Positions 16,921-42,431 of a stretch of 64,000 nt of DNA are shown here, piece after piece (within the stretch, counting starts at the first letter, position 1; the number at the start of each line of letters is the position of its first letter). Both the position numbers and the translations under genes were made by a program. Under the pieces are notes generated by a model. That model was not told the origin of the DNA and ran no database searches. It worked only from the letters and a program-made list of their open reading frames with translations. Origin of the DNA: Felis catus (taxonomy: Eukaryota); the NCBI RefSeq assembly GCF_018350175.1, contig NC_058368.1, forward strand, positions 52,640,001-52,704,000. Direction: 5' to 3'.

Positions 16921-18498
16921 GTCTTAGTATCACAAGAAAGTAAAAATCGATACAGTCACGGCAGTGGGTGCCTACAGTTTATTTATGAGAGTGTAATCTA
17001 AGTTGAGAGCAATTCAGAACACGCATTAAACAATCTATTCAGAAGTTAGTTGATGTGTCTTGAGGACATCATTTCTTAGACCTATAGAAGAGCAGGACCC
17101 TGAGCTAGGGCTGGGGAAAAGAAGAAATTTAAAATGAATGGATGACATAAACGTTGGCAGGTGCATTTCATGCTTGCTTTTCTTTTGCCCTTTCTACTCT
17201 TCTACCGCCTGGATTTCCTGAGAAGCTGAAATATAAACGGAGCACAAGTCCCCCACTGTCTCCAACTTACTTTAAGATTATTTTTTTAATGTATGGGAAC
17301 CACACATTTTACTATTTCCACTCACCGTCTGGTTTCAGAATCTGCTTAGAGTGGTTTTTCTTCACAACCAGAAAACTTTGAAAGGACAGCTACCGCTGAG
17401 TGACCAGCCTTTGCACCTGCTTAAGGAGGACGTTTGCTTGCTTCTTCATAAATTGACAAAGGTGTCATAGAATAGTCTTATTATTCCTTCCCGCAATACA
17501 CAGATTCACTCACTAGATAGCAAAGCATTTCTTGTTTTGCACAGTTTCCTACTACATAAAATAGGAAACTCTGCAAAGCATGTGTTTTCGTTATGTTTTA
17601 TTAACATAATATTGTCTTTTTATTTGGTAAGGATTTTACTTAATACAAAACAAATGCTTAAGTTCTTATTACATACATTGGTCATCATTATATAATACAA
17701 ATGTATTTGCCTGCAACATTCCTGTTTGGAACAGATTTAAAAAAAAAAAAAACAGCCTTTGTTAAATCTTTTCATTTGTTCATTCCTGGTTCTCCAACAA
17801 TGAAATCCGGTCATACTTTCCTATAAAATAATGGTTTGTTTGCTTCTTTTTTTACAAATGCATTTTATTAAAAACTTTGATGACATTTCAAGTCAACAAC
17901 AGAAACAAATCAATTTTGATGGAAGAGATCTATTTTTAAAAATACCTCTAGTGCTTTTTTTTAAACATTAACAACTGTTTAAAATCACAGCTTTTTAAAT
18001 GTACTATTCTGTTTTGAACATCAAGTGTTTTGTTTCACAGATTTGCCGGTGAAATTAAAAAGATTTGGCTAAAATAGGATGATGTCAGAAGATATAATCC
18101 CAGCTATTAAGAAACTTTGTACATTTGGCATCTGATTTAGTCTTGGGTCACCAGGAAATAAAGTATCTCTGGTCTTTCTGGAGCAGTAGGTGGCACACTA
18201 AATGTTCCAAACGAACAGAAGCATTTGACATGGTGGCTGGGCAGATCAGTGGATGATTTTTTTTTAATATTTATTAACTTCCAAAGGAAAGTCATTTACT
18301 TTTTAAGAAATGTTTATAGGCTAGGATAACATACACAAACCTTCAAATGCCTCTTTCCCTGAACCTCAATTTAATTTGGGGGGGGGGGGTACCTGGTTAT
18401 TTATTACCTCCCAGCACTCTGAAATGAGGGCTGTGGTTTAAGAGTTTCTGTAGTTCAAAAAAAAATTGATAAACACAGGCAACTAATATAGAATTCAT

Positions 18499-18504
18499 TT
18501 TATT
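18499..18504 (-). terminator. Candidate polyadenylation signal of POU4F1
   Basis: AATAAA with a downstream GU-rich and U-run element. Confidence 0.55.
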
Positions 18505-19520
18505 CAGAGCACCGCTTTTCACATGAGTTATCTGAAAGTGAATTCTGATTCAGCAGAAAAATACATCATTCTCACCCCTTCCTCACTTTTTATCCCCCTT
18601 TCAATATCCTCCCCTGTATTTGTGGTTGAATTGAGTCTTGTTTTCTGACCGGCTCTACCAGGATTTGGCCCAGTATAAACAAAAATGCACCCAAATCATA
18701 AAACTGCTCTTCTTTCAGTTATGTTTTATTTGTAAGCATACTGGGACACATCCCCCTGTTGTATTTTGGCGCACAGAAATGGTTCTAATAGAAGTGGGGA
18801 GGGGGGAAAAGGTAATAGAGCAAAGACATAACCAAGGAGAAAGCTCAGCAGACATAACATGGACAGGTAGATCAATCCGTGAGACATTTCAGGATTAACA
18901 CTGGCAGTTTGTAACCACTGTGTGAGTGTGTGCATTAAAGAAAATATTTACAGTAATCTTCCTTTTTTTCCCCTCTTCCTCTAAATACAAGAATATGACA
19001 AGAATGTTGTGTTTTCGGTGAAAACAGGCAGTAGACTGTGAAATCACACTATCCACAAAACGGTCTATCAGAAAGCTAGCCCAGTTTAGTGCTCAGTTTC
19101 AAATGCATAGAATGTTTGCGCTGCAAACAATGATATACAACGTAATTAAATAAATAATGCCTAACCAGAGTGAGACCTAATTGTGTTTCTTTCTGCACCT
19201 TTCAGATCATGCATGATTTCAGTCTTGTTAAATGGCAGAGTTTTCCTTTCCTCATTTGTCCGGTTTTTAATTTTTTAGTTCTTATTAAAGGATGGTAATA
19301 AACCATCTCCACATGAGATCGAAAGAGTATCTTGTGCACCAAGCACGCATTTTACCTAACCACCTTCAACTGTCTTTCTCTTTTTTTTTAATCCATCAGT
19401 TCATAAAGTATCTTGATTATTACTATGAAATACTATACATGATTTTCTATTTGGGAGACTGATAGTGCAAATTAAAGTTCTTGCTACCCAACATTTATCC
19501 CCAGCAATAAATTACTTTTG

Positions 19521-19556
19521 AATAATAATAATAGTAATAATAATAATAATAATAAT
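19521..19556. repeat. Imperfect (AAT)n in the POU4F1 3'UTR
   Basis: Direct read. Confidence 0.9.
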
Positions 19557-21025
19557 GAAACACAGTTGTTCTGCTTTCCACCCCAACATGCAGACCCCTT
19601 TGAAACAAACAGAGGGCTTTAAACCTGTCTTCCTCTCTTCTGGGATTTAGTTGATTTTTCTCCCAGCCAAGTCCTGCTCCAATTGAAAGCAGAAACTTCT
19701 CGGATTTCAACGATTTCATGTTCTCTAAAAGAGAAAGAAAGGGTACCTAGAAGAGCAAGACGGGTCTTGTTCTGGGGAGAAAATGGGACAGAGTATCTCT
19801 CCTAGTGTCTTCCACCCCATCAGTCTAACTGAATCAATGGGGGGCGGGAATCAGTAGGTAGTTTAAAATAAACCACACTAAAAAATAAATGAAGGGGCAG
19901 CACGGTCCATGGGGAGGGGGGGCCAGGGAGGGGAGGAAGCTTATTTTGAAATAATGTTTTCCAGATCTTAGATACAAAAGCAAACATGAAAAGAGAAAAA
20001 CCTTGCTAAAATGGTTTTACTTCACTAGAATAAAATACTTCGGGACCCCTAAATTCTGCCTTTTAGTCAGCTCAAAGACTGTGTGTGTCTCTCTCTCCCT
20101 AACCGTCCCCACATGACAGTGACCAGGCCACAGTAGAGGCCAGGTCACCAGAAAACTTGGGACCCCTGAACAGCCACCCTCCCCCTTTCACCTGTGCTCC
20201 CACTCACTTTCCAGCAAATGGAGAGCAGCTATTGGATTCTCATTGGAAGCGAGAAAAATAAATCAAAGAGGACAGGGATGGGGTGGAGGTGACACTTGGA
20301 GGGAAAAAGTAAACACTGAGACAGAACAACTAGCTTCGCTACCCAGAATTTCACCCTCTGGTTCGTTTAGTTTTCGGTTTTTAACTCAGTTCATGTATGT
20401 AGGGTTGGGGTTGGTGGTAATAATGGTGGTGCTCTTTTTTCTCTTCCTTAGGGGGTAATGAAGCTGCAGAATACGGCTCCCCAGACTTAAGTTACTAAAG
20501 CATTTTTTCTTTGCTTTTGTTCTGTTTTGTTTTAGTTTGTCTTTATTTGTCTAGGTTTTTTTGTTGTTTTTGTTTTTTTTTGTTTTTTGGTGGTTGGTAG
20601 GTTTGTTTTTGTACGTAGTTCCTTGGTCCCCAGGAGATTTTGACAAGTGTCTCTGGTCAAAAACAGTCCATTTCCCTACTCTTCCCCACTCTCCCCCCAC
20701 CCCAACCCCCAGAACCAACCTGCTCCTCAAAACCCCTCCTCCAGTCTCCGCTTTCCTTCCCCTCAACTCCCCGCTCACCCAAAAGGTCCCTCTTTTTCCC
20801 CCACCTGGCTCTTGGGTGTCCACACCCAGCACCCAGTCCTCTTTGCTGTGGAGGATCAGGGGCAGAGGGAGCACAGAGAGGGTGGAAGAGAGTGCTCGAG
20901 GAGGGACTCCCCAAATGCAAGCAGGATAACGGACACTCCAAGTCTAGGGGGAAGCAGGCCCAAAGAAAGCTCCCGAAAAGCCCCTTCAGCTCCCCGCTCT
21001 GCCCCGCCCCGCACCTCCCACCCCC

Positions 21026-22168
21026 TCAGTAAGTGGCGGAGAATTTCATCCGCTTCTGCTTCTGTCTCTGGTTGCAAAACCACACCCGCACCACGTTCTT
21101 TTTGAGGTCCAGTTTCTCGGCGATGGCGGCGATCTTCTCGGAGGAGGGCCGGGGTTGTACGGCGAAGTAGGCCTCGAGGGAGCGCTTCTCCGGCGCTGCG
21201 ATGGAAGTCCGCTTGCGCTTCTTCTCGCCGCCGTTGAAGAGCTCGGGCTTGTTCATTTTCTCGCGCTGCGCGCCCTCGGCCTCCTCGAGCCACGCCTGCA
21301 GGATGGGCTTGAGCGCGATCATGTTGTTGTGCGAGAGCGTGAGCGACTCAAACCTGCAGATGGTGCTCTGGCTGAGCGAGCCCACGCCCGGGATCTTGAG
21401 GTTGGCCAGCGCCGAGCCCACGTCGGCCTGCGTCACGCCCAGCTTGATGCGCCTCTGCTTGAAGCGCTCGGCGAACGCCTCGAGCTCGCGCGGGTCCGTG
21501 TCCGAGTCGCAGATGGACGCCAGGCCCGCCGCGCCCACCACGGCCGCTGCCGCCGACGCCGCCGCCACCTGCCCGGCCGCCGCCGCCGCCGCCGCCGCTG
21601 CCGCGCCGTGGTGCGCCGCCGCCGCCACCAGCCCGGGGTGCGGCAGACCCGACGGCATGTTCATGGCGGCCGCCGCCGCCGGGTGCGACAGGTGGCCTAG
21701 GCCGTGCATGTGCGGATGCGGGTGCGCCGAGCCGCCGAGCAGCCCGCCGCCCGGGCCGCCGCCGCCGCCCCCCGGGCCACCGCCGCCGCCGCCGCCCCCG
21801 GGGCCGCCGCCGCCTGGGCCGCCGCCGCCCCCCGGGCCGCCGCCGCCCCCCGGGCCATCGTGGGCGCCGCCGCCGCCGCCCGCCGCGCCCGCACCACCCG
21901 CGCCGGCCATGAGCGCGAGCGAGGGCGACGAAATATGGTCCAGCAGGTCGCCAGGCTCGAGCGCCTGGTGGTGGTGGTGGTGGTGGTGGTGGTGCGCCAG
22001 CGGCACGGTGGACGTGGACGTGCATGGCACGCTGTTCATCGTGTGGTACGTGGCGTCTGGCTTGAATGGGTGGCTCTTGCCCTGGGACACGGCGATGTCC
22101 ACGGCCGCCAGCGCCTCTGCCCGCGCCAGCAGCGTTTCGTCTAGGCTGGCGAAGAGGTTGCTCTGCAG
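21026..22168 (-). CDS. POU4F1: POU4F1 coding exon 2: POU-IV box, poly-His, Gly/Pro and poly-Ala tracts, POU-specific domain and POU homeodomain; total protein 421 aa
   Basis: Acceptor cctgcAG at 22170-22169. Reads [24 protein letters not shown]...[27 protein letters not shown]...[22 protein letters not shown], with TGA at 21028-21026. The Gly/Ala tracts and C-terminal ATY match Brn3a rather than POU4F2/3. Confidence 0.98.
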
Positions 22169-22862
22169 CTGCAGGCGACACAAACCAAACCAAAACAAAA
22201 CACACACGCACACACAAAACAAAAACAAAACAACAACAAAAAAAAAGCAGAAACACAAAACAAAACCACACACAAGCCGGAAAGCACAAGCAAAGGGCAA
22301 ACCAAACACAAAGCAACCAAAATAACAATAACGGGGGTGGGGATAGTGGAGAACAGGAAAGACGGAATGGGGGCACATTGGGGACGAGACAGGGGGGATA
22401 GATGAGTGGGGACGTATGTGTGGGGAGGGGGACAGATGCAGGGGAGAGGGGAACACAAGAACACATTCCGGGAACCGGCGTGGGAGACCAAAAAGGAGGG
22501 GGAAAAGAAGAAGAAATGGAGATGTAACTCGCAGCTGGGGACCCGTGTCACGCACCCGAACACGCACAGAGACCGCCTTTCCGAGGCGTGAAATTAACAG
22601 AGAAAGTGGAGGGAAGTCGAGAGTCACGGCCCCGGCGCTCCCCACTCTGATAGCAGGCGCCCGACACAGAGGCAGAGGCGACGGGAACACGACATTAAGC
22701 GCCACTGGACAAAACGTCCCTCGCAGCGGGATTCCTCTAAAAATCCCTGCCCGCAAATCCCCGCACCTGGACCTGTGCGCACACCAGCACCCGACATGCA
22801 GTGTCTCGGAGACGGGGAGGGGGCAGGCGCGCGGGCCGGGGCCGCGGGCGTGGGGCGCTTAC

Positions 22863-22985
22863 CGGCGGCGTGGGTAGGCAGGCCCGCCGGATGGCCTCAG
22901 AGCTGGAGTGCAGCGACGGGTACTTGTGCTCAGGGAGGGTGGGATGCATGGCAAAGTGAGGCTGCTTGCTGTTCATAGACATCAT
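22863..22985 (-). CDS. POU4F1: POU4F1 (Brn3a) coding exon 1, 41 codons MMSMNSKQPHFAMHPTLPEHKYPSLHSSSEAIRRACLPTPP
   Basis: ATG at 22985-22983 (context aagATGA). Characteristic POU-IV N-terminus. GT donor (gtaagc) at 22862-22861, phase 0. Confidence 0.97.
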
Positions 22986-23432
22986 CTTGATGGCTTGGCA
23001 TGTAAATCCACAAACACTCCGAAAGTCTGCCGGAAAGTGCGCACGCCGGCTCCCCCGGCCTCCCTTCGGAGGCTGCAGCCGCGGCGGCTGGCGGCACGGA
23101 GGCGGCGGCCGCGCCGGGGGCTGCTGCTGCTCCTCTGCTGCCGCCGCTGCCGCCCGGCGCTCCCTTTGACCGTGCAGAGCGCCGCGCACCGGCCTCGCGA
23201 TCCCACTTCTCCTACAGCTCTAGCCCCGCGCGCCGACGGGATGCACTCCTCTTACACCTGAGCCCCACTTCTCGCGGCCGGTTCGGGGAGCTCTCGCGAG
23301 AGCTCCCGGCCCCGCAGCGCTGACAGGCATCAGCTGTCTCTGTCTGTCTGGCGCGCGCTCTCTCTCTCCGCGGCGCCGTGCGTCTGCGCGCGCGCGCGCG
23401 CTCTCCCGGCCGCGACAGGCGCTTGGGAGCCG

Positions 23433-23440
23433 CTCTTATA
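23433..23440 (-). promoter_or_regulatory. Putative TATA box (TATAAGAG) of POU4F1; implied TSS ~23405-23410
   Basis: Isolated TATA motif in a GC-rich island ~450 nt upstream of the ATG, in the correct orientation. Confidence 0.6.
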
Positions 23441-24199
23441 GTGACCACCAGCAAGGACAGCGCAGGTGATGCACCTGTAGCTACCCGGGCATGCGCACTT
23501 GCACGCCTCACCTTTCCCACCGCGGCTCTGGAAAGATCAAAAGGGCTAGCTATTGTCTGAGGGTACGCACCTTTTAGGGGGAGAAAGACAAGATGCTCAC
23601 AAGCCCGGTGGTGTTTTCCCTCTCTCAAACTCTCCCCCATCCCCACCGCAAGCCCTGAATATATGCGCATTACTTAGGCACACCTCCACTCCGGGATGTC
23701 TAACAAGCTGTTATATAATGTATACAGCTGGATATTTGTATGTTAAATTATGCCCGCGCATTCCTCTGTATACAGTATAAATAACAACACAGAAATGCAG
23801 AAGACGCTGTCTTTTGCTGCAAGAACCCGTTTCTTTCAAGGTTTATAAATAGGTTCCTGGAGGATAATCGCGGTGACAGACATTTGTTTGAAGCAGTCAG
23901 ACGCTATTGATTTCCATATAATTTAATTTCCTCCGCATACTTTGTTGTTGTTGTTGTTGTTGTGAATATAACTGTGTCAGGCACCGACAGTGACAGCCAC
24001 TTAGGAGCCACAAGGAGCGTGTGCGTTCTACCAGGGAACCGCTGTTGAAATGAAATTGTGCATTTCTCTTATTGTTTGTCTCCTTTAACCGTGTACAAAC
24101 CCACATTTCAAACGAGCTCCGGGTGATCTGAGGCTTCTAGTAATCAAAAGGAAAAATAGTTAACAGGGTGTTGTTGGGATCCTTTCCTCTCCTCAGCGT

Positions 24200-24201
<2 letters not shown>

Positions 24202-24244
<43 letters not shown>

Positions 24245-24381
24245 CACACTTTATGCTGGAAACTCCAGAAAAGGAAATTGCTTTAGAGAAAAAAGAATAA
24301 GATGTTGAAAAGAGAACTTTCTTTTCCCTTCCATCGTTTTGGCTTCTTTGCTTCTTATCTCTGCCTCTCTCTCTCCCTCCC

Positions 24382-24424
<43 letters not shown>
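24202..24424. repeat. (AC)~24 at 24202-24249 and (GT)20 at 24385-24424, mutually inverted
   Basis: Direct read. Confidence 0.95.
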
Positions 24425-24429
<5 letters not shown>

Positions 24430-26723
24430 CTTTTCCAATAGGAGATAGGATCAAGCCAGTTTATAGGAAAATGTGATTAAAATATTAATTCAAACCAACT
24501 TGAAAGAAAGAAACCTAAGCTCTGATCCGGACTTTATTTTTTATGTATGCTCTTATTGTGAAATCAAAACCTAAGAAGAATGAATCAATTAGCCAACCTG
24601 TTATATGGCCCTTGTGTGGCAGGCAGATCAAGGGCCTCCCGTGAGAACCACAGTTCAGGTGCCGAGTCCCCAGGGATACAGCACTTGCCCCGGGTGATAA
24701 TAACAGCCCAGATGCTATCACTTCTGTGGCAAGAGAGCTGGAGAGCGGCAAGAGGCTACTTATGGGAGGCAGAGATCAGATAAATAATCTTTCTGGTCCT
24801 TCTCACATCAAAGAGGTCTGTATTTCTACCGCAGAGCCGATCTTATTTCTATAAACCTTAATTTGAGTTCGCGTGGATCTTTTCTTCCAATAAACGCATC
24901 CGTATTTATCATATATTAGCACTCAATACTCAAATTCCAAGAAGAGCCCACAGGCGTCACCATGGCTTTTTCTTTCTTTCTATTCTTTTCTTCTACCCTC
25001 CACCCCCTTTGCAGCCAGAGAGGGGAGTAAGAAAGATGTTCACTTGCTGGTGTGAGGAGCCGCGTTTCCATCCATTACGTAGTCCCTGGGGAGTGCTAAA
25101 TGCAACTTTATCTCTGCAGGGAATGGAGAGGAGCAGGACTTCGCTGGAGGGAGCGAGTGAGTCCTAAGGTAGTCGCCGCCCCGGGTGTCCAGGCTTAACC
25201 TAATCCTTCTTGACACCCCTCGCAGCGGTTCCCCGAGCTCTCTCACTAGGGGAAGGAAGGGTCCCACAGAGGGCGAGCGCCTAGATCCTGTCTGCCCCCC
25301 AGGGAAACGCTGGCCTTTAGGGACCCTGAAGCGTGCACAGGAGACAGGATTTCAAACAGCGCAGGTTAGGGCTGGGTGGACCTCCAGAGAGCGAGGCCAG
25401 CCCCTGAGTACCGGAAGCTCATCTCTGCTCACACTACCACCCTGGGAGGGCACCAGGAAATCCAGCGGGGAGACCCCCTGACAGAGATCAGAAGTTCACC
25501 GCTCCCACCCCCCACTCATCTCCTAGTTCACATTTCTTTGGACACCTTTCTTAAGACAACACCTAGGGGTGGGGCCAGACCTCTGCCCAGAATATCTCAG
25601 CTTTTCCCGGGGTTAGAAATAGGAGGGCTATGGGTTCAATTCCCAATCCACCCCCCAACCAATGGACTGGAAGCCCATTTAGGGCACATCCGTGTCCACC
25701 ATGGTACTTAGCAAGGTGTTTGTCACAGAGTAAAAACGCCCCATGAAATAATGTGTGTCTGGGAAGGAAGACAAGGCAGATGGAGGGGCAGGAGTAAAAG
25801 CCAGAGAATTCAACAAGCCAAGGTTAATGGGGTGGGGGGGAGAGCTAGAGGAAGATCACTGAAGGGTCTCCTCTCCTCCTAAAAAGGAGATGAAGACTGG
25901 GCCAGAGGGGTGTGTTGTCCCCACACAGAGCTGTAAATCTGGATAGCAGCTTGTTCTTTTTTTGGAGTTCAATTATTTCATCTCTCCCTCATTTACTTTT
26001 TACTTTCCTTTCCTTCCTCAAATGCTTGGTAATCACCAGTCGGGGCCAGGGCAAGACACTGGAGAGAAAATGAGGTATAAAATATGGGTATCTGCCCTCT
26101 AGGAGGTGGCAGTCTAGGAGAGTGGGGCAGCCCTAGGTGAAGAGGCGTTTGTGGTATAGGTGTGACAGGTACAACGAGAGGGCATTGTACAGAAATACGG
26201 GACAGTTTGGGAGATGATGCTGGGATACTTATCTTGCCACATCCCTGCCGGGCCTCAGCTCCAGGCTAGAGAATGGGGCATAGTGGCAGGTCTGCAGGCA
26301 GTTCCTTGGTCCTTCTCTACTTACCCCAAGGCTGAAAGAAAAGGGTGATGGACTGGGGCTCACCAATATGTTACTGCTTTGTTTTCCTGGATTGGCAAGC
26401 TCAGTAACTAGCTGGCCCCTGCCTGTGCTAATGATGCCCACATGGGGTCTGAGCCTTGGCATAGATTCCTGGAAAGATTCCCCCCACCTTCCTTCTCCTT
26501 GTTTAATGACCACCACAGATTCTCCCCTCCCCCTAGCTCATAGCTTTGCATTTTATCAAGAGGGGGATAATGAATGCACAGCTATTGATTTCCAAGGAAT
26601 TTCCGCCCCCAGGGATAGGGAGTCTATCATCTGGATCAGAGACACATTTCTTTCCCTCATTAATTAATTTTCTCCTCCTCCTTTGGCAGGCCCCACTTCA
26701 CATCTCCTTTGGCAGCTCCTTCC

Positions 26724-26724
<1 letters not shown>

Positions 26725-26756
<32 letters not shown>
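26725..26756. repeat. C32 homopolymer
   Basis: Direct read. Confidence 0.95.
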
Positions 26757-27049
26757 AGCTCAGAGAGCAGAGATTCCTTGGTTGGAGTGAGGGCCAGCAC
26801 TGCTGGGAGTGAACTCTCCTAGCCTTGGACACCCACGCACCCACCCACCCACCCACCTCTCCAGCTCTGGAGAGAACGCCTGACAGCTGCTGCCCGCTGG
26901 GGCTACCTTTCTCCTTCCAAAGGGGTACGGGGAAAATTAGCACTGGACTCCGCAGCCACTACCTGCACGCATACACACACCTATGGGATTGGACCCGAGT
27001 TATTTGTTCGTTTTCAGGGACAGGGTTTTGGCCCTGAAGAATGTCTACT

Positions 27050-29600
27050 TAAGTGCGTGGAGGTTGTGTGTGTATAGGGAGGAGAGGATCGGGCCCCGGG
27101 TTCTAGCGTGAACCCAGAGATCTGGCGCTACCTGCAGGCCGGCCACCTCGGGTTCTGGCGCCTGGAGCAGGAGCTCTGCACCTGCCAGATTTGGGGAGCC
27201 ACGTTTCCCGCGGGCACTTGCCCAGTTTTGAAACTAGGCACATTGCACAGCGCAGTCAGCACTCTGCGCGCAGAGAAAGCCCCCAGAGCCCAAAGCTGGC
27301 CGGTTGCAGAGGCCGCTTGGGTTGTTTTTAAGCAGTGTGAAGGGGCAGGCCCAGAGTAGGGGCGGGGGTCGGTTCTCCGAAGAGGAGCAGCACTTGGGTG
27401 GGCCCTGCACCCTCTTGCTCCGACACTTTCTGTCTGAAGGGTGGAATGGAGGAGCTGCTGGTGACTGTACTTTCGCTTCCTCTCCCGGCCGCCTTCCCGG
27501 GCCAAGCCTGGGCTGCCTCTCAGCGCTTCCCTCGCGCACGCCGGTCGCGTCTCTCCTGCTGGCAGGGGCCCGGGATCCTCGCGGGTCCTGCCGGGGTCCT
27601 CAGACCTCCTCCACGCAGACCGCAAGGCCGCAGCACCCACCGGGGCCGGCGCTTGGCGGTGGCCCTACCCTCTAGCCAGCTCCAGGGCCCAGCTCTGCCC
27701 CAGCAGCGAATTCAGAGTCACGTCCTTGCTGGCAGGAGCTCGGAGATTTCCTGAAGGCCCTGTCCTCCCTTTCGCGCCCGGCCCGCGCCCGGCCCGCACC
27801 CTGGGCTGCTTGTCTTGCCCCCAAAGCTGAAGGGGGTGAGTTATAGAGGCCCACGGTGATCTCCCGTAAGGATCCCGCCCCGCGTTCAGACCGGATTCCA
27901 GATGGGACCTGAGGAGAAGGTTCTTGAGGGAGCCGGTCGAAAACCTACTGTTTTCTTTCTTCTGGCCGTTTAATTCAAGTGCAACTTCCGTTGGGAACAT
28001 TTTCCTGGATGTCGACCACCCCACCCCGAGATGATGCGCCCCCAGTAAAGTTCACTGCCGGTCACTATCACTCTTGGCGTTACACGTGGAGATTATCTGT
28101 GTTTCTCTGTATCTATCTATCCATCCATCCGCTCCACCTTAATCTTAATCTCTCTGTGGACTTAAAACCAACCTACCTTGTGAAAGATCTGCGGGTGAGG
28201 CCGGACAACTACATCTCCATCCTAACAGGGGCATGGCCTCCCCCGCCCGCTAGCTGCCAGAACCAGTTACGCTGTCCGGGTGAACAATGTTGTATCACTA
28301 AACGGGGCCACGCGCCCGTGTGGTCTAGATCCCAAGAGGAGGCAAGTCGCCCCCGCCCCACCCAGGCTCTTTCAAAACTGGAAGAGCGCGCTGGTCAGAG
28401 AAGGGGTTCGAGGTCCCCGGGTTAAAAACAACAACGAACGAACCAACTCTACAGCAGGCACTCCCGCCAGTGACCCTATGCGACGAGATGGAAATTCTGT
28501 CGCCTTCCCTCGGCTCAGCCGCCTGCCCACCGCTGCGACTCGGACGCACGCAGGCCCCAGGTGGAGGGAGCTCCGCTGGCGCAAGTGGACAGCAGAGGAC
28601 CCCCGGCCCTCCACGAGTGCGGTTCCGGGGACCCGGAGGCTGGCGCCCATCGCCCTCCGCAAGCTCAGCTCTGCCTGCTGGAGCAGGATCCCTAGGAGAG
28701 CCGGGAGCCGCCGAGGAAAGCGCGAAGCCGCGAGTCCAAGCGCCAGAAGTGCGGAGTTGGGTCCTGTCGCCGGGCTCCAGCGCTCGCCGGCGCCGCCGCC
28801 AGCCGCCCCTCCTCCTCGCCGCCCGCACAAATCAAAGCCCCTTGCGAGGGACTGGGAAATAGTTGCCTTGTCATGTAACACATTGCCCTGATTTATTATA
28901 AAATTTTAACGAAATCATGCATATTTTAACAGCCTTTAATCACTGCATGAAAATTTAATTCATGGACTGTAGCGCGTTTAAATAAATGAAGTGTTAATTC
29001 ATTAGGATTAATTAATTTGTTAAAGGATTGTGTGCAAGGTTAAGGTGGAAAGAAAACTCTTTGTTGGTTTCGCGTCTTAATCGCCAGGTTTCGGGAGTGG
29101 TAATAAAATGAAAGGAAACCTCAAAGCAAGTCGTTTCTTCGGGTGGGGTCTGGGCGGGACCAGCTGACAGCGCCCTCGAGAGCGCGGGATATTCCGGCCC
29201 GAGGGGCCTGGGCGGGTGGGTCCCCCCCGGGGCACTGGGGGGGGGGGCGGGGGTTGGGGGAAGAGCAGCACTGGCTGCGGAAATCCCGGAAGGCTGGGTT
29301 CCTTGGAATCAGAGAGAGGAAAGGGGGCTCAGAGCCGAGGCTAGCGGGCTAGACCTCACCTCCCCACCTTCAGCACAAAGATGACCCTGTGAGTGAAGCG
29401 AGGTCGCGCCTTCCGGCCCTCGAAGCGCAAAGCCTCGGCTTAATGGACAGATGATGGGCCAGCCATGCCACCTCCTGAGCCTTCCAGCGCCCAGGGAGTC
29501 ACTGTCTCGCCATCAGGCCGCCGGCCCTGGCGGCGAGGGCGAGCTTAGAGCCTCAGGAGACGCTTGGAAAGAGGAGGCGGAGCAAAGCCAAACTTGCAAG
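27050..29600. promoter_or_regulatory. Upstream CpG island(s) of POU4F1, including a candidate autoregulatory enhancer
   Basis: CpG-dense sequence with an embedded AT-rich cluster of POU/homeodomain sites at 28885-29025. Confidence 0.75.
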
Positions 29601-31483
29601 CTCAGGCTGGAGCAATCTAGAAACCTTTCTCAATCAGGAGCCTTGACATCAGAGAATGGGTCCTTCAGCATCTCTTCTGAGACGTCTGCTAAACAGGTGC
29701 TCCTTCAAGGATAGCGGACGAGCAAGGGACGTTCTTTTCCGCACCGAGCTCTTATTCATCCTTAAAGACCCAAAGCTAACAGCACTTCCGGTAAGATGCC
29801 TGATTTCCTCTCTGCTCCAACCTACCCCCAACACCGACTTTTTCTACTCACCACGTTATTAGAATCAAAAAGGGCCACAACTAGCTCCTGTCCTCATAGA
29901 AAGTCTCATTTACATGCCTAAATCATTGCCCTTGGGAACTGGATCTTTACACCCCCAAATTACAAGTGTCACACAAGGCACACACTTCTTTCTCCACAGT
30001 TGGTTGATCCAAGGACCATTTCTTAGAGGGGGGTCTGCTCCCTGATAAGACACAGCAAGCCTAAAAATCTACCGTTTCATGAAGTGGAACTTCAAGGTAT
30101 TTCTAGGCTGCATCTGTCACATAAAACTGAAGATCACCCTAGCTTGAGCTCCAGAAGGGTTCTTCTTAAAAGAAATCTGCATCTTAATAGATGTTTCCTC
30201 GCTCAGAGTGGGGTTCCGAGAATTAGGCAATAAATGTTCACTATGCACTCTGAGATCATTGCTTAAAAGGTTTTCTCTCTGCCAAGTATTATTAAAAGGG
30301 TAGGGTTACATCATTACAGGCAAAGACAGTGTTGTAGGACTCGCACAAATAGGAATGAAAGACCTTATGAGGCTTTGGGAAATACTTTTAATCTAATAAG
30401 CCACATTCCATAAAAGTTAAACTGTTATCTCAGTTTGATGTTCTACAAGTGTCATTCACAGGTACAAAATCTAGTGTATGTATTACACTTTGAATAACTG
30501 AAAACCATTCAAGTATTAGAAACAAGTTTCTGAAACAGCTTAGGGTGTAAGACCAAAGTTCTTCCCTTGTTCAGTGGTACCTTTAGTTTTGAACCAAATG
30601 TAGATACGAAAGAGATTATAGAAATACAAAGTATATTTGAAATTTAAGGGACTATAAATCTTAAAGTCTCCCATTTTCAGTTTTAGTCTCAAAGGATCCA
30701 TTAAAACAGGAAAAAGACATGTCATTATGGACAGAATTAAGATTTTGAAAATTAAAAGATGAACACTAAAGGTCATGTGAGAACAAAATCTAGCATCACG
30801 TCACATTTCCTTAGCCATTACATTTTAGATGAGCAATCAAAAGATGCTGTTTTTATAGACATGAACTGTTAGTGTCTGCTTCTCTTATCAAGAGTGCATC
30901 TTTTTCTAACACAGCCTCTCAGTAGGGAGAGGCTACATGTCAGAGTTAATGTGAATCTTTCTACAGTTAAAAGTGGCACACAACTCCCATCCTTGAGTTT
31001 CTACCTTAGTAGTGGAGTTAGACCCTGGAACACTGGCAGGAATTAAATGCTACTTGAAAAGAAACATGCTAATACTTCTAAAGTAGTACTTTAAAAAGAA
31101 TCCTTGGAAATTTCAATTCCATTCATCCTTTGGCCTACAAATGCGAACTCTCATGCGTGGGGGAGGAAGAGTACAAGGTCTGGAGTCAGAGGCCCAGCTC
31201 TAAGACATGGTTCTGTCCCATTCCAGCCACGTAATCACTAATCTTCAATTCACTTATTTGTAAGGTGGGGATAAGAGTTCTTGACTCACAGAGTTTGAAA
31301 AGAGGATTATTAGGAAATAAAATTTAGCAAAGTACTTGGTTTCAATAGAAGTTTTTGTTTTGTGTTTACAGTGTGCATATAATAGATGTACTTGAAAATA
31401 CGAAACCACTGTACTTATTATGATATATCAGATTATGGTAAAAGAGTACAAATGAGAATATGTGATTAAAATAAAATCCTGCA

Positions 31484-41977: not shown

Positions 41978-42192
41978 GGGGCGCCTGGGTGGCTCAGTTG
42001 GTTAAATGTCCGACTTCGGCTCAGGTCATGATCTTGCAGTTTGTGAGTTCAAGCCCCGTGTCAGGCTCTGTACTGACAGCAAGCTCAGAGCCTGGAGGCT
42101 GCTCTGGATTCTGTCTCCCTTTCTCTCTGCCCCTCCCATGCTCACACTCTGTCTCTGTCTCTCTCAATAATAAATAAACATTAAAAAAAAAA
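41978..42192 (+). mobile_element. CAN-SINE, first of a tandem pair
   Basis: Full element flanked by taaactactaggga. Confidence 0.92.
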
Positions 42193-42209
42193 TTTAAACT
42201 ACTAGGGAA

Positions 42210-42431
42210 GGGGCGCCTGGGTGGCTCTGTTGGTTAAGTGTCTGACTTCAGCTCAGATCATGATTTCATGGTTTGTGGTTCGAGCCCTGTGCCGGGCTCT
42301 GTGCTAACAGCTCAGAGCCTGGAGCCTGCTTTGGATTCTGTGTCTCCCTCTCTCTCTGTCCCTCCCCCACTCGTACTCTGTCTCTGTCTCTCAAAAATAA
42401 ATAAACATTAAAAAAATTTTTTTAAATACAA
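42210..42431 (+). mobile_element. CAN-SINE, second of a tandem pair
   Basis: Full element flanked by taaactactaggga. Confidence 0.92.

Follow-up and report, generated by a model that had tools for sequence, protein, structure and literature searches.

Results

An adenosine-free tract precedes the POU4F1 acceptor

The POU4F1 (Brn3a) intron of Felis catus is, judging from its sequence, probably an unusual distant-branch-point intron that is removed slowly and is prone to retention. The acceptor AG is preceded by 152 nt without an adenosine and by 357 nt without an AG dinucleotide. Both features had been described in an earlier note on this DNA and were reproduced on recounting the minus strand: no A occurs from 22322 to 22171, and no AG occurs between 22529-22528 and the acceptor at 22170-22169. 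It follows from the sequence that the intron either branches at least 155 nt upstream of exon 2 (the note had said at least 150) or uses a base other than A. Positions are those of the window, the 64,000-nt stretch of NC_058368.1 that was analysed (52,640,001 to 52,704,000), and negative numbers count back from exon 2. Published work is cited for the portions of each source that were consulted.

22985-22863, minus strand: coding part of POU4F1 exon 1 (123 nt, 41 codons)
22862-22169, minus strand: POU4F1 intron (694 nt, GT-AG, phase 0)
22528-22578, minus strand: last upstream AGs, namely AAG (-410), CAG (-368) and GAG (-361)
22322-22171, minus strand: A-free U/G tract (152 nt, predicted to be unstructured)
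22161-22170, minus strand: acceptor region, with the acceptor CAG at 22171-22169 and, 6 and 8 nt downstream of it, another CAG and a GAG
22168-21026, minus strand: coding part of POU4F1 exon 2

The spliced frame encodes 421 aa with matches to Pou and Homeodomain, and the junction between exons 1 and 2 falls at the same place in 109 of the 120 homologues listed among 398 matches. If the intron is retained, the exon 1 frame ends at a stop at 22739 after 82 aa; the exon 2 frame, by itself, crosses the intron without a stop from 22858 onward. We know of no POU4F1 intron later than this one, so decay of the retained RNA would not be of the usual junction-dependent kind. At the acceptor, three AGs lie inside 10 nt (22170-22161, minus strand). 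Use of the second CAG would remove Leu-Gln, and a fur-seal gene model (P0073) is without those two residues.

The A-free tract is the longest run in the 64-kb window that lacks any one base, the next being 91 nt. Given that A makes up 11.3% of the intron outside the tract, the probability of finding no A in 152 nt is 1e-8, and none of 20000 shuffles of the intron bases reached such a run (maximum, 131 nt). Among the 3866 YAGs on both strands of the window, the next-longest preceding A-free run was 78 nt. The GAG at -361 sets the 5' edge of the AG-exclusion zone. By Gooding's count this zone spans 359 nt, which exceeds the criterion of at least 100-150 nt; the next largest AG gaps in the window are 150 nt on the minus strand and 171 nt on the other strand. 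By themselves, the 205 AG-free nt upstream of the tract do not reach significance, as AG was absent from them in 7% of shuffles.

From -154 to -3, the intron is 61% U, 29% G and 11% C, with 35 UG and 15 UUUG motifs, and a decayed tandem repeat scores in the tract only from 22180 to 22275. By this motif content, the CELF, TDP-43 or ELAVL proteins named in the earlier note would be candidate binders. The usual branch position is thereby left without a candidate, there being no A from -154 to -3. From -360 to -155, the composition is 44% C, 34% U, 11% A and 11% G. The trinucleotide UNA is scarce in this A-bearing part of the zone (4 against 7.4 expected, with 132 of 2000 shuffles as low); the count falls to 1 against 5.8 expected, with 23 of 2000 shuffles as low, when the edges are drawn post hoc.

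Folding predictions bear on one further account of the intron, in which a distant A is brought near the acceptor by RNA structure, or the 3' UTR pairs with the tract. An A/C-rich low-complexity stretch of the 3' UTR (plus-strand 20503-20595) is indeed complementary to the tract in composition. However, 15 of 200 shuffles formed a duplex as good as that between the two, and GC-rich tiles elsewhere formed better ones. The whole intron folded worse than 20 of 20 shuffles (z +1.94), and its last 160, 240 and 360 nt folded no better than shuffles (-39.6 vs -41.4 kcal/mol for 360 nt). No Rfam match was found in 17000-30000. We therefore consider a role for structure highly improbable. A structure-bridged 3' splice site was likewise rejected, since no stable helix that would shorten the distance from branch to AG was predicted.

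Candidate branch points lie far upstream

Four adenosines in the zone have a U two bases before them (22525, 22403, 22329 and 22323). The candidate sites, with the pyrimidine run that adjoins the first, are as follows.

22523-22525, minus strand: putative branch site I, A22525 (-357, UNA) and A22523 (-355), where the AG-free zone begins on its 5' side
22490-22516, minus strand: pyrimidine run, 27 nt unbroken, the longest in the intron, directly after site I
22403, minus strand: candidate branch site II, A22403 (-235), the only yUnAy in the zone
22323-22329, minus strand: candidate branch site III, the UNA doublet A22329 (-161) and A22323 (-155), the adenosines closest to the tract

The earlier note had favoured A22403. 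Its motif, cacUCAu, is present and is unique in the zone, but published rules favour A22525/22523. These rules, together with the adjoining 27-nt pyrimidine run, make A22525/22523 the most likely branch, with a little less than half of the weight that we give to distal sites. A22525 lies 4 nt past the bounding AG; its motif is weak (UNA, not yUnAy), and the 30 nt that follow it are 93% pyrimidine (93-97% after A22525/A22523). Otherwise, branching may occur at the A22329/A22323 doublet, a clearly less likely site at the exact edge of the A-free tract with 60-67% U downstream, or, less likely again, at A22403, where the best motif is followed by a C-rich tract. No intron A gave a good U2 match. 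Neither U2-pairing scores nor an energy ranking separated the candidates, the latter being uninformative owing to lonely-pair artefacts.

In published maps, distant branch points lie near the 5' end of the exclusion zone and are often doublets (PMC2991248, PMC1431707). Gooding et al. estimated that only one-half to one-fifth of zones of at least 100 nt mark a distant branch point (PMC1431707). Validated examples show that distal branch points exist and are conserved, though they often make a modest contribution and delay splicing (PMC5378181); far-distal ones are seldom dominant (PMC5959240). In the POU4F1 intron, no proximal A is present to share the work.

Published branch-point tables (Taggart S1, Pineda S1/S2, Mercer) contained no POU4F1 intron among the entries listed, as judged by human coordinates, with Pineda S1/S2 giving no chromosome 13 match at these; the source samples may not express POU4F1, and the lack of a match is not evidence of absence. 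POU4F1 was also absent among the entries listed in the supplements of PMC1431707, and the consulted portions of PMC6025728 hold nothing on its intron.

The other solution allowed by the sequence is proximal branching on a base other than A (U, G or C), roughly 20 to 60 nt before exon 2. Such a reaction would be slow, and could yield a circle of about 650 nt that resists debranching in neurons. Non-A bases account for 17.5% of mapped branch points in constitutive introns (PMC5959240), and the acceptor side of the tract is U-rich (12-15 U per 20 nt), as a proximal site requires. Stable lariats branched at C or G are known from the brain and from the projections of neurons (Talhouarne and Gall 2018, PMC6112733; Saini et al. 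2019, PMC6879206) and are the outcome expected if the POU4F1 branch is not an A. By contrast, the stable lariats reported tend to be 100-500 nt long, C-branched and poorly conserved, whereas the POU4F1 intron is 694 nt long, has a U/G-rich end (the tract is only 11% C) and can be aligned across mammals; POU4F1 is unnamed in the consulted main text of both reports. No good non-A U2 match was found at -15 to -60. Proximal branching would also leave 205 further AG-free nt (7% by chance) and the pyrimidine run near the 5' boundary of the zone unexplained. We judge it quite unlikely.

The intron is reported to be retained in human neurons and to harbour a promoter

In human neurons driven by neurogenin, most POU4F1 RNA reportedly keeps the intron when the gene is first induced, and less of it does so as expression goes up (PMC5353968, whose supplementary list includes POU4F1). 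The earlier suggestion that splicing of this intron is regulatable is supported to this extent for the human orthologue, as retention, and not as a switch between long and short Brn3a. Transcripts from the intronic promoter described below, or overlapping antisense RNA, could have raised the apparent retention in human cells. An antisense RNA is named POU4F1-AS1, RNF219-AS1 or OBI1-AS1 in the human literature. Branch points at least 100 nt upstream were found in 22.0% of switch-like retained introns vs 4.6% of constitutive ones (PMC5959240).

Distant branching suggests how such retention might arise. U2 would join the intron at a distant site, with A22525/22523 and the neighbouring 27-nt pyrimidine run as the likeliest place, and the spliceosome would then take the first AG downstream, across the unstructured spacer. 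Because the U/G tract at the acceptor would offer a binding platform but no branch adenosine, removal of the intron would be slow and could be controlled by U/G-binding proteins. The intron would then be expected to stay in the RNA early after activation of the gene and to be removed at later times. That distal branching causes the developmental retention gate is the causal link that we infer. If correct, four adenosines and a 152-nt spacer in a 694-nt intron are a candidate sequence cause for changing retention, and variants up to 360 nt into the intron could be pathogenic yet missed by tools that view the last 40 nt. POU4F1 is a neuronal transcription factor that has been studied extensively. 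An ataxia syndrome involving POU4F1 has been reported (PMC12558638). Among the literature matches listed, no paper addressed a POU4F1 branch point or A-free tract, none gave lariat data for the intron and none offered a sequence explanation for its retention; the consulted text of PMC5353968 gives neither a branch point nor a sequence cause. Distant branch points are themselves a known class, so that one in POU4F1 would be a moderate surprise.

The short form of Brn3a, which is without 84 residues, is reported to come from unspliced RNA that starts at a promoter within the intron (PMC2920243, PMC3692409). This runs counter to the earlier proposal that splicing sets the output of long versus short Brn3a. 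A promoter in the intron serves the short form in zebrafish as well (bioRxiv 10.1101/2021.05.26.445703). In the window, the AUG at 22039 is the first of exon 2 and encodes Met85, matching the 84-residue truncation. The AUGs nearest upstream are listed here.

22376-22466, minus strand: last intronic AUGs, at 22466 (out of frame) and 22378 (in frame with exon 2), with none from there to Met85

The tract probably doubles as the 5' leader of the intron-promoted short RNA. The same bases would then be under added pressure against new AUGs. The AUG at 22466 opens a 372-codon out-of-frame ORF (22466-21348) over most of exon 2; in the bat, it is in frame.

The tract appears to be conserved among mammals

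Conservation was read from gene models that translate through the intron in the exon 2 frame, and thus from proteins, not DNA. The read-through records were Myotis brandtii P0001, Bos javanicus P0165, P0167, P0168 and P0169. Codons compatible with the window intron numbered 68 of 87 in the bat, 74 of 94 in the banteng, 74 of 94 in P0167, 48 of 60 in P0168 and 110 of 146 in P0169. All five records share nine identical residues just before the junction, and a mole-rat model retains the last four residues at this place.

Residues that require an A at codon position 1 or 2 were confined to the upstream part of the intron. Pooled over four records (P0167, being nearly identical to P0165, was omitted), they occurred in 0 of 174 codons downstream of A22323 vs 35 of 229 upstream (Fisher, 1e-9 pooled; 0.12, 0.003, 9e-5 and 0.007 per record), figures to be read with the bias that stop-free frames favour A-poor DNA, that three of the four pooled records were found by their likeness to the tract, and that bat and banteng are both laurasiatherian. 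Between 78 and 85% of tract positions per record are positively not A, third codon positions being partly blind in such read-throughs, and the counterpart tract measures 120-153 nt in the five records.

These comparisons suggest that the A-free tract is probably conserved across at least laurasiatherian mammals. The earlier note had proposed an alignment of orthologous introns as a check; at the level of protein read-throughs, the A-free tract appears to be kept, while in the AG-free zone one Lys codon of P0169 could conceal an AG. A lineage-specific simple repeat devoid of function was rejected, since the five other records align to the intron with 75-80% of codons compatible. We also rejected the idea that the intron encodes a conserved N-terminal extension, since three reading frames are used in its upstream part (one in bat/bovid, one in P0168 and one in P0169) and the frames of the intronic AUGs vary between species.

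P0169 is the only orthologue record that extends to the A22525 block, which it keeps. Its codons K, Q and R-V are compatible with the last upstream AGs (AAG, CAG and GAG, respectively). A22403 is kept in both bovid-type records, unreadable in the bat and unaligned in P0169, where it falls in the least conserved part of the alignment. P0168 and P0169 retain A22323, the bat and banteng models leave it unreadable, and P0167 seems to have lost it.

Outside these records, a sea krait model (P0003) and a herring-cluster model (P0111) have no A-requiring residue over 17 and 14 codons, respectively, up to the model start. A fish-type (P0004) and a paralogue-like (P0176) model have such residues at most 3 codons from the acceptor. 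The N-termini examined comprised the 120 listed of 398 matches, 47 cluster members and 8 of 13 HMMER matches, with P0181-P0189 left out. Protein searches returned no shorter or longer read-through proteins with the bat N-terminus, and exon 2 alone was absent from the protein collection as an exact sequence. Metagenome scans for orthologous intron DNA gave 0 matches; there were 588 pattern matches, none of which was confirmed.

The tract appears to be maintained, perhaps in part by avoidance of AG and AUG

The upstream codon divergence of 20-25% corresponds to about 0.1-0.15 substitutions per site between records. On a star tree of five lineages with branches of 0.05-0.1, the probability that all retain zero A was 0.0005-0.02 with the intron composition and below 4e-5 with a genome-like composition. 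A change to A at any of the 152 positions would give a new AG at 44 of them and a new AUG at 35, 79 changes in all. When these changes were treated as purged, the probability rose to 0.02-0.13 with the intron composition and to 4e-5 to 5e-3 with the genome-like one. The A-free tract thus appears to be maintained, but these values do not demonstrate selection against A as such, and avoidance of AG and AUG may account for much of the A loss.

The same numbers bear on whether the loss of A is a by-product, the tract being either an old U/G slippage tract purged of AG and AUG or promoter DNA, with distal branching as a consequence that has no regulatory role. More than half of the changes to A would create AG or AUG, and once these are purged the intron composition gives zero A a probability of 0.02-0.13. 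The variable length of the tract, the part of it that scores as a tandem repeat, and the intronic promoter of the short form point the same way. However, zero A remains improbable under the genome-like composition even with AG and AUG purged, UNA is scarce also in the part of the zone that does carry A, and the literature consulted did not place the start of the short RNA with respect to the tract. On these grounds, a by-product is rather unlikely.

Selection may instead have acted on branching itself. In that case the tract would be an exclusion zone for branch points, shaped by selection, that serves as a timed gate on full-length Brn3a in sensory-neuron differentiation, or that forces a non-A branch and a stable intron circle. 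Every A of the last 120-150 nt would have been removed so that the U-rich acceptor region is unusable by itself. Any single change to A in the tract would be relevant to splicing in this dosage-sensitive gene, whether or not it created an AG. We put this forward tentatively, as possible but doubtful.

Comparison with known introns

The POU4F1 intron appears to have the sequence features by which distant-branch-point introns are recognized. Described examples include alpha-tropomyosin exon 3, PTB exon 11 (zone 381, branch -351) and GABBR1 exon 23 (Gooding et al. 2006, PMC1431707), as well as MBNL1, CLK1, CLK3 and HTR4 (Corvelo et al. 2010, PMC2991248). Like these, the POU4F1 intron has a long AG-free zone (359), a UNA with a long pyrimidine run at its 5' end, and a low-complexity spacer. 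The introns of Gooding and Corvelo are tied to regulated splicing; for POU4F1, retention is reported for the human orthologue.

The POU4F1 intron also differs from these examples. Its last 152 nt are without A, whereas 12 of 13 Gooding entries have an A at most 25 nt from the acceptor and the other has one at -57; the 13 are the complete entries viewed by eye among the entries listed of Gooding's 165. Total loss of A is therefore not the usual look of such zones. The downstream exon of POU4F1 is the terminal one of two coding exons, so that the outcome is retention, not skipping. In addition, the POU4F1 spacer is probably the leader of an intron-promoted RNA as well.

In being short and GC-rich, and in having an in-frame stop, the POU4F1 intron resembles switch-like retained introns (Pineda and Bradley 2018, PMC5959240; Middleton et al. 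2017, PMC5353968). The Brn-3a(s) intronic promoter (PMC2920243, PMC3692409) involves the same intron, but through a choice of promoter, not of branch; it is an overlapping function of the DNA.

Other features of the locus

Two upstream AUGs were noted in the exon 1 leader region. The first opens a 36-codon ORF (23330-23220, minus strand) in the frame of the main CDS, with a stop before the CDS. The start of its peptide is read on into POU4F1 in models of the bowhead whale (P0171) and of the mole-rat (P0002/P0121). The second lies 16 nt 5' of the main start and opens a 23-codon overlapping ORF that is out of frame (23001-22930, minus strand).

A run of 32 consecutive C at 26725-26756 may be a sequencing or assembly artefact. 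The repeat at 41978-42416 is presumably carnivore SINE-like. Finally, a near-match to the POU4 binding consensus (PMC3692409) was found at 23752-23744 on the minus strand, ~300 nt upstream of a TATA-like box. This near-consensus site, one of six such matches in the window, is a possible candidate for an autoregulatory site.
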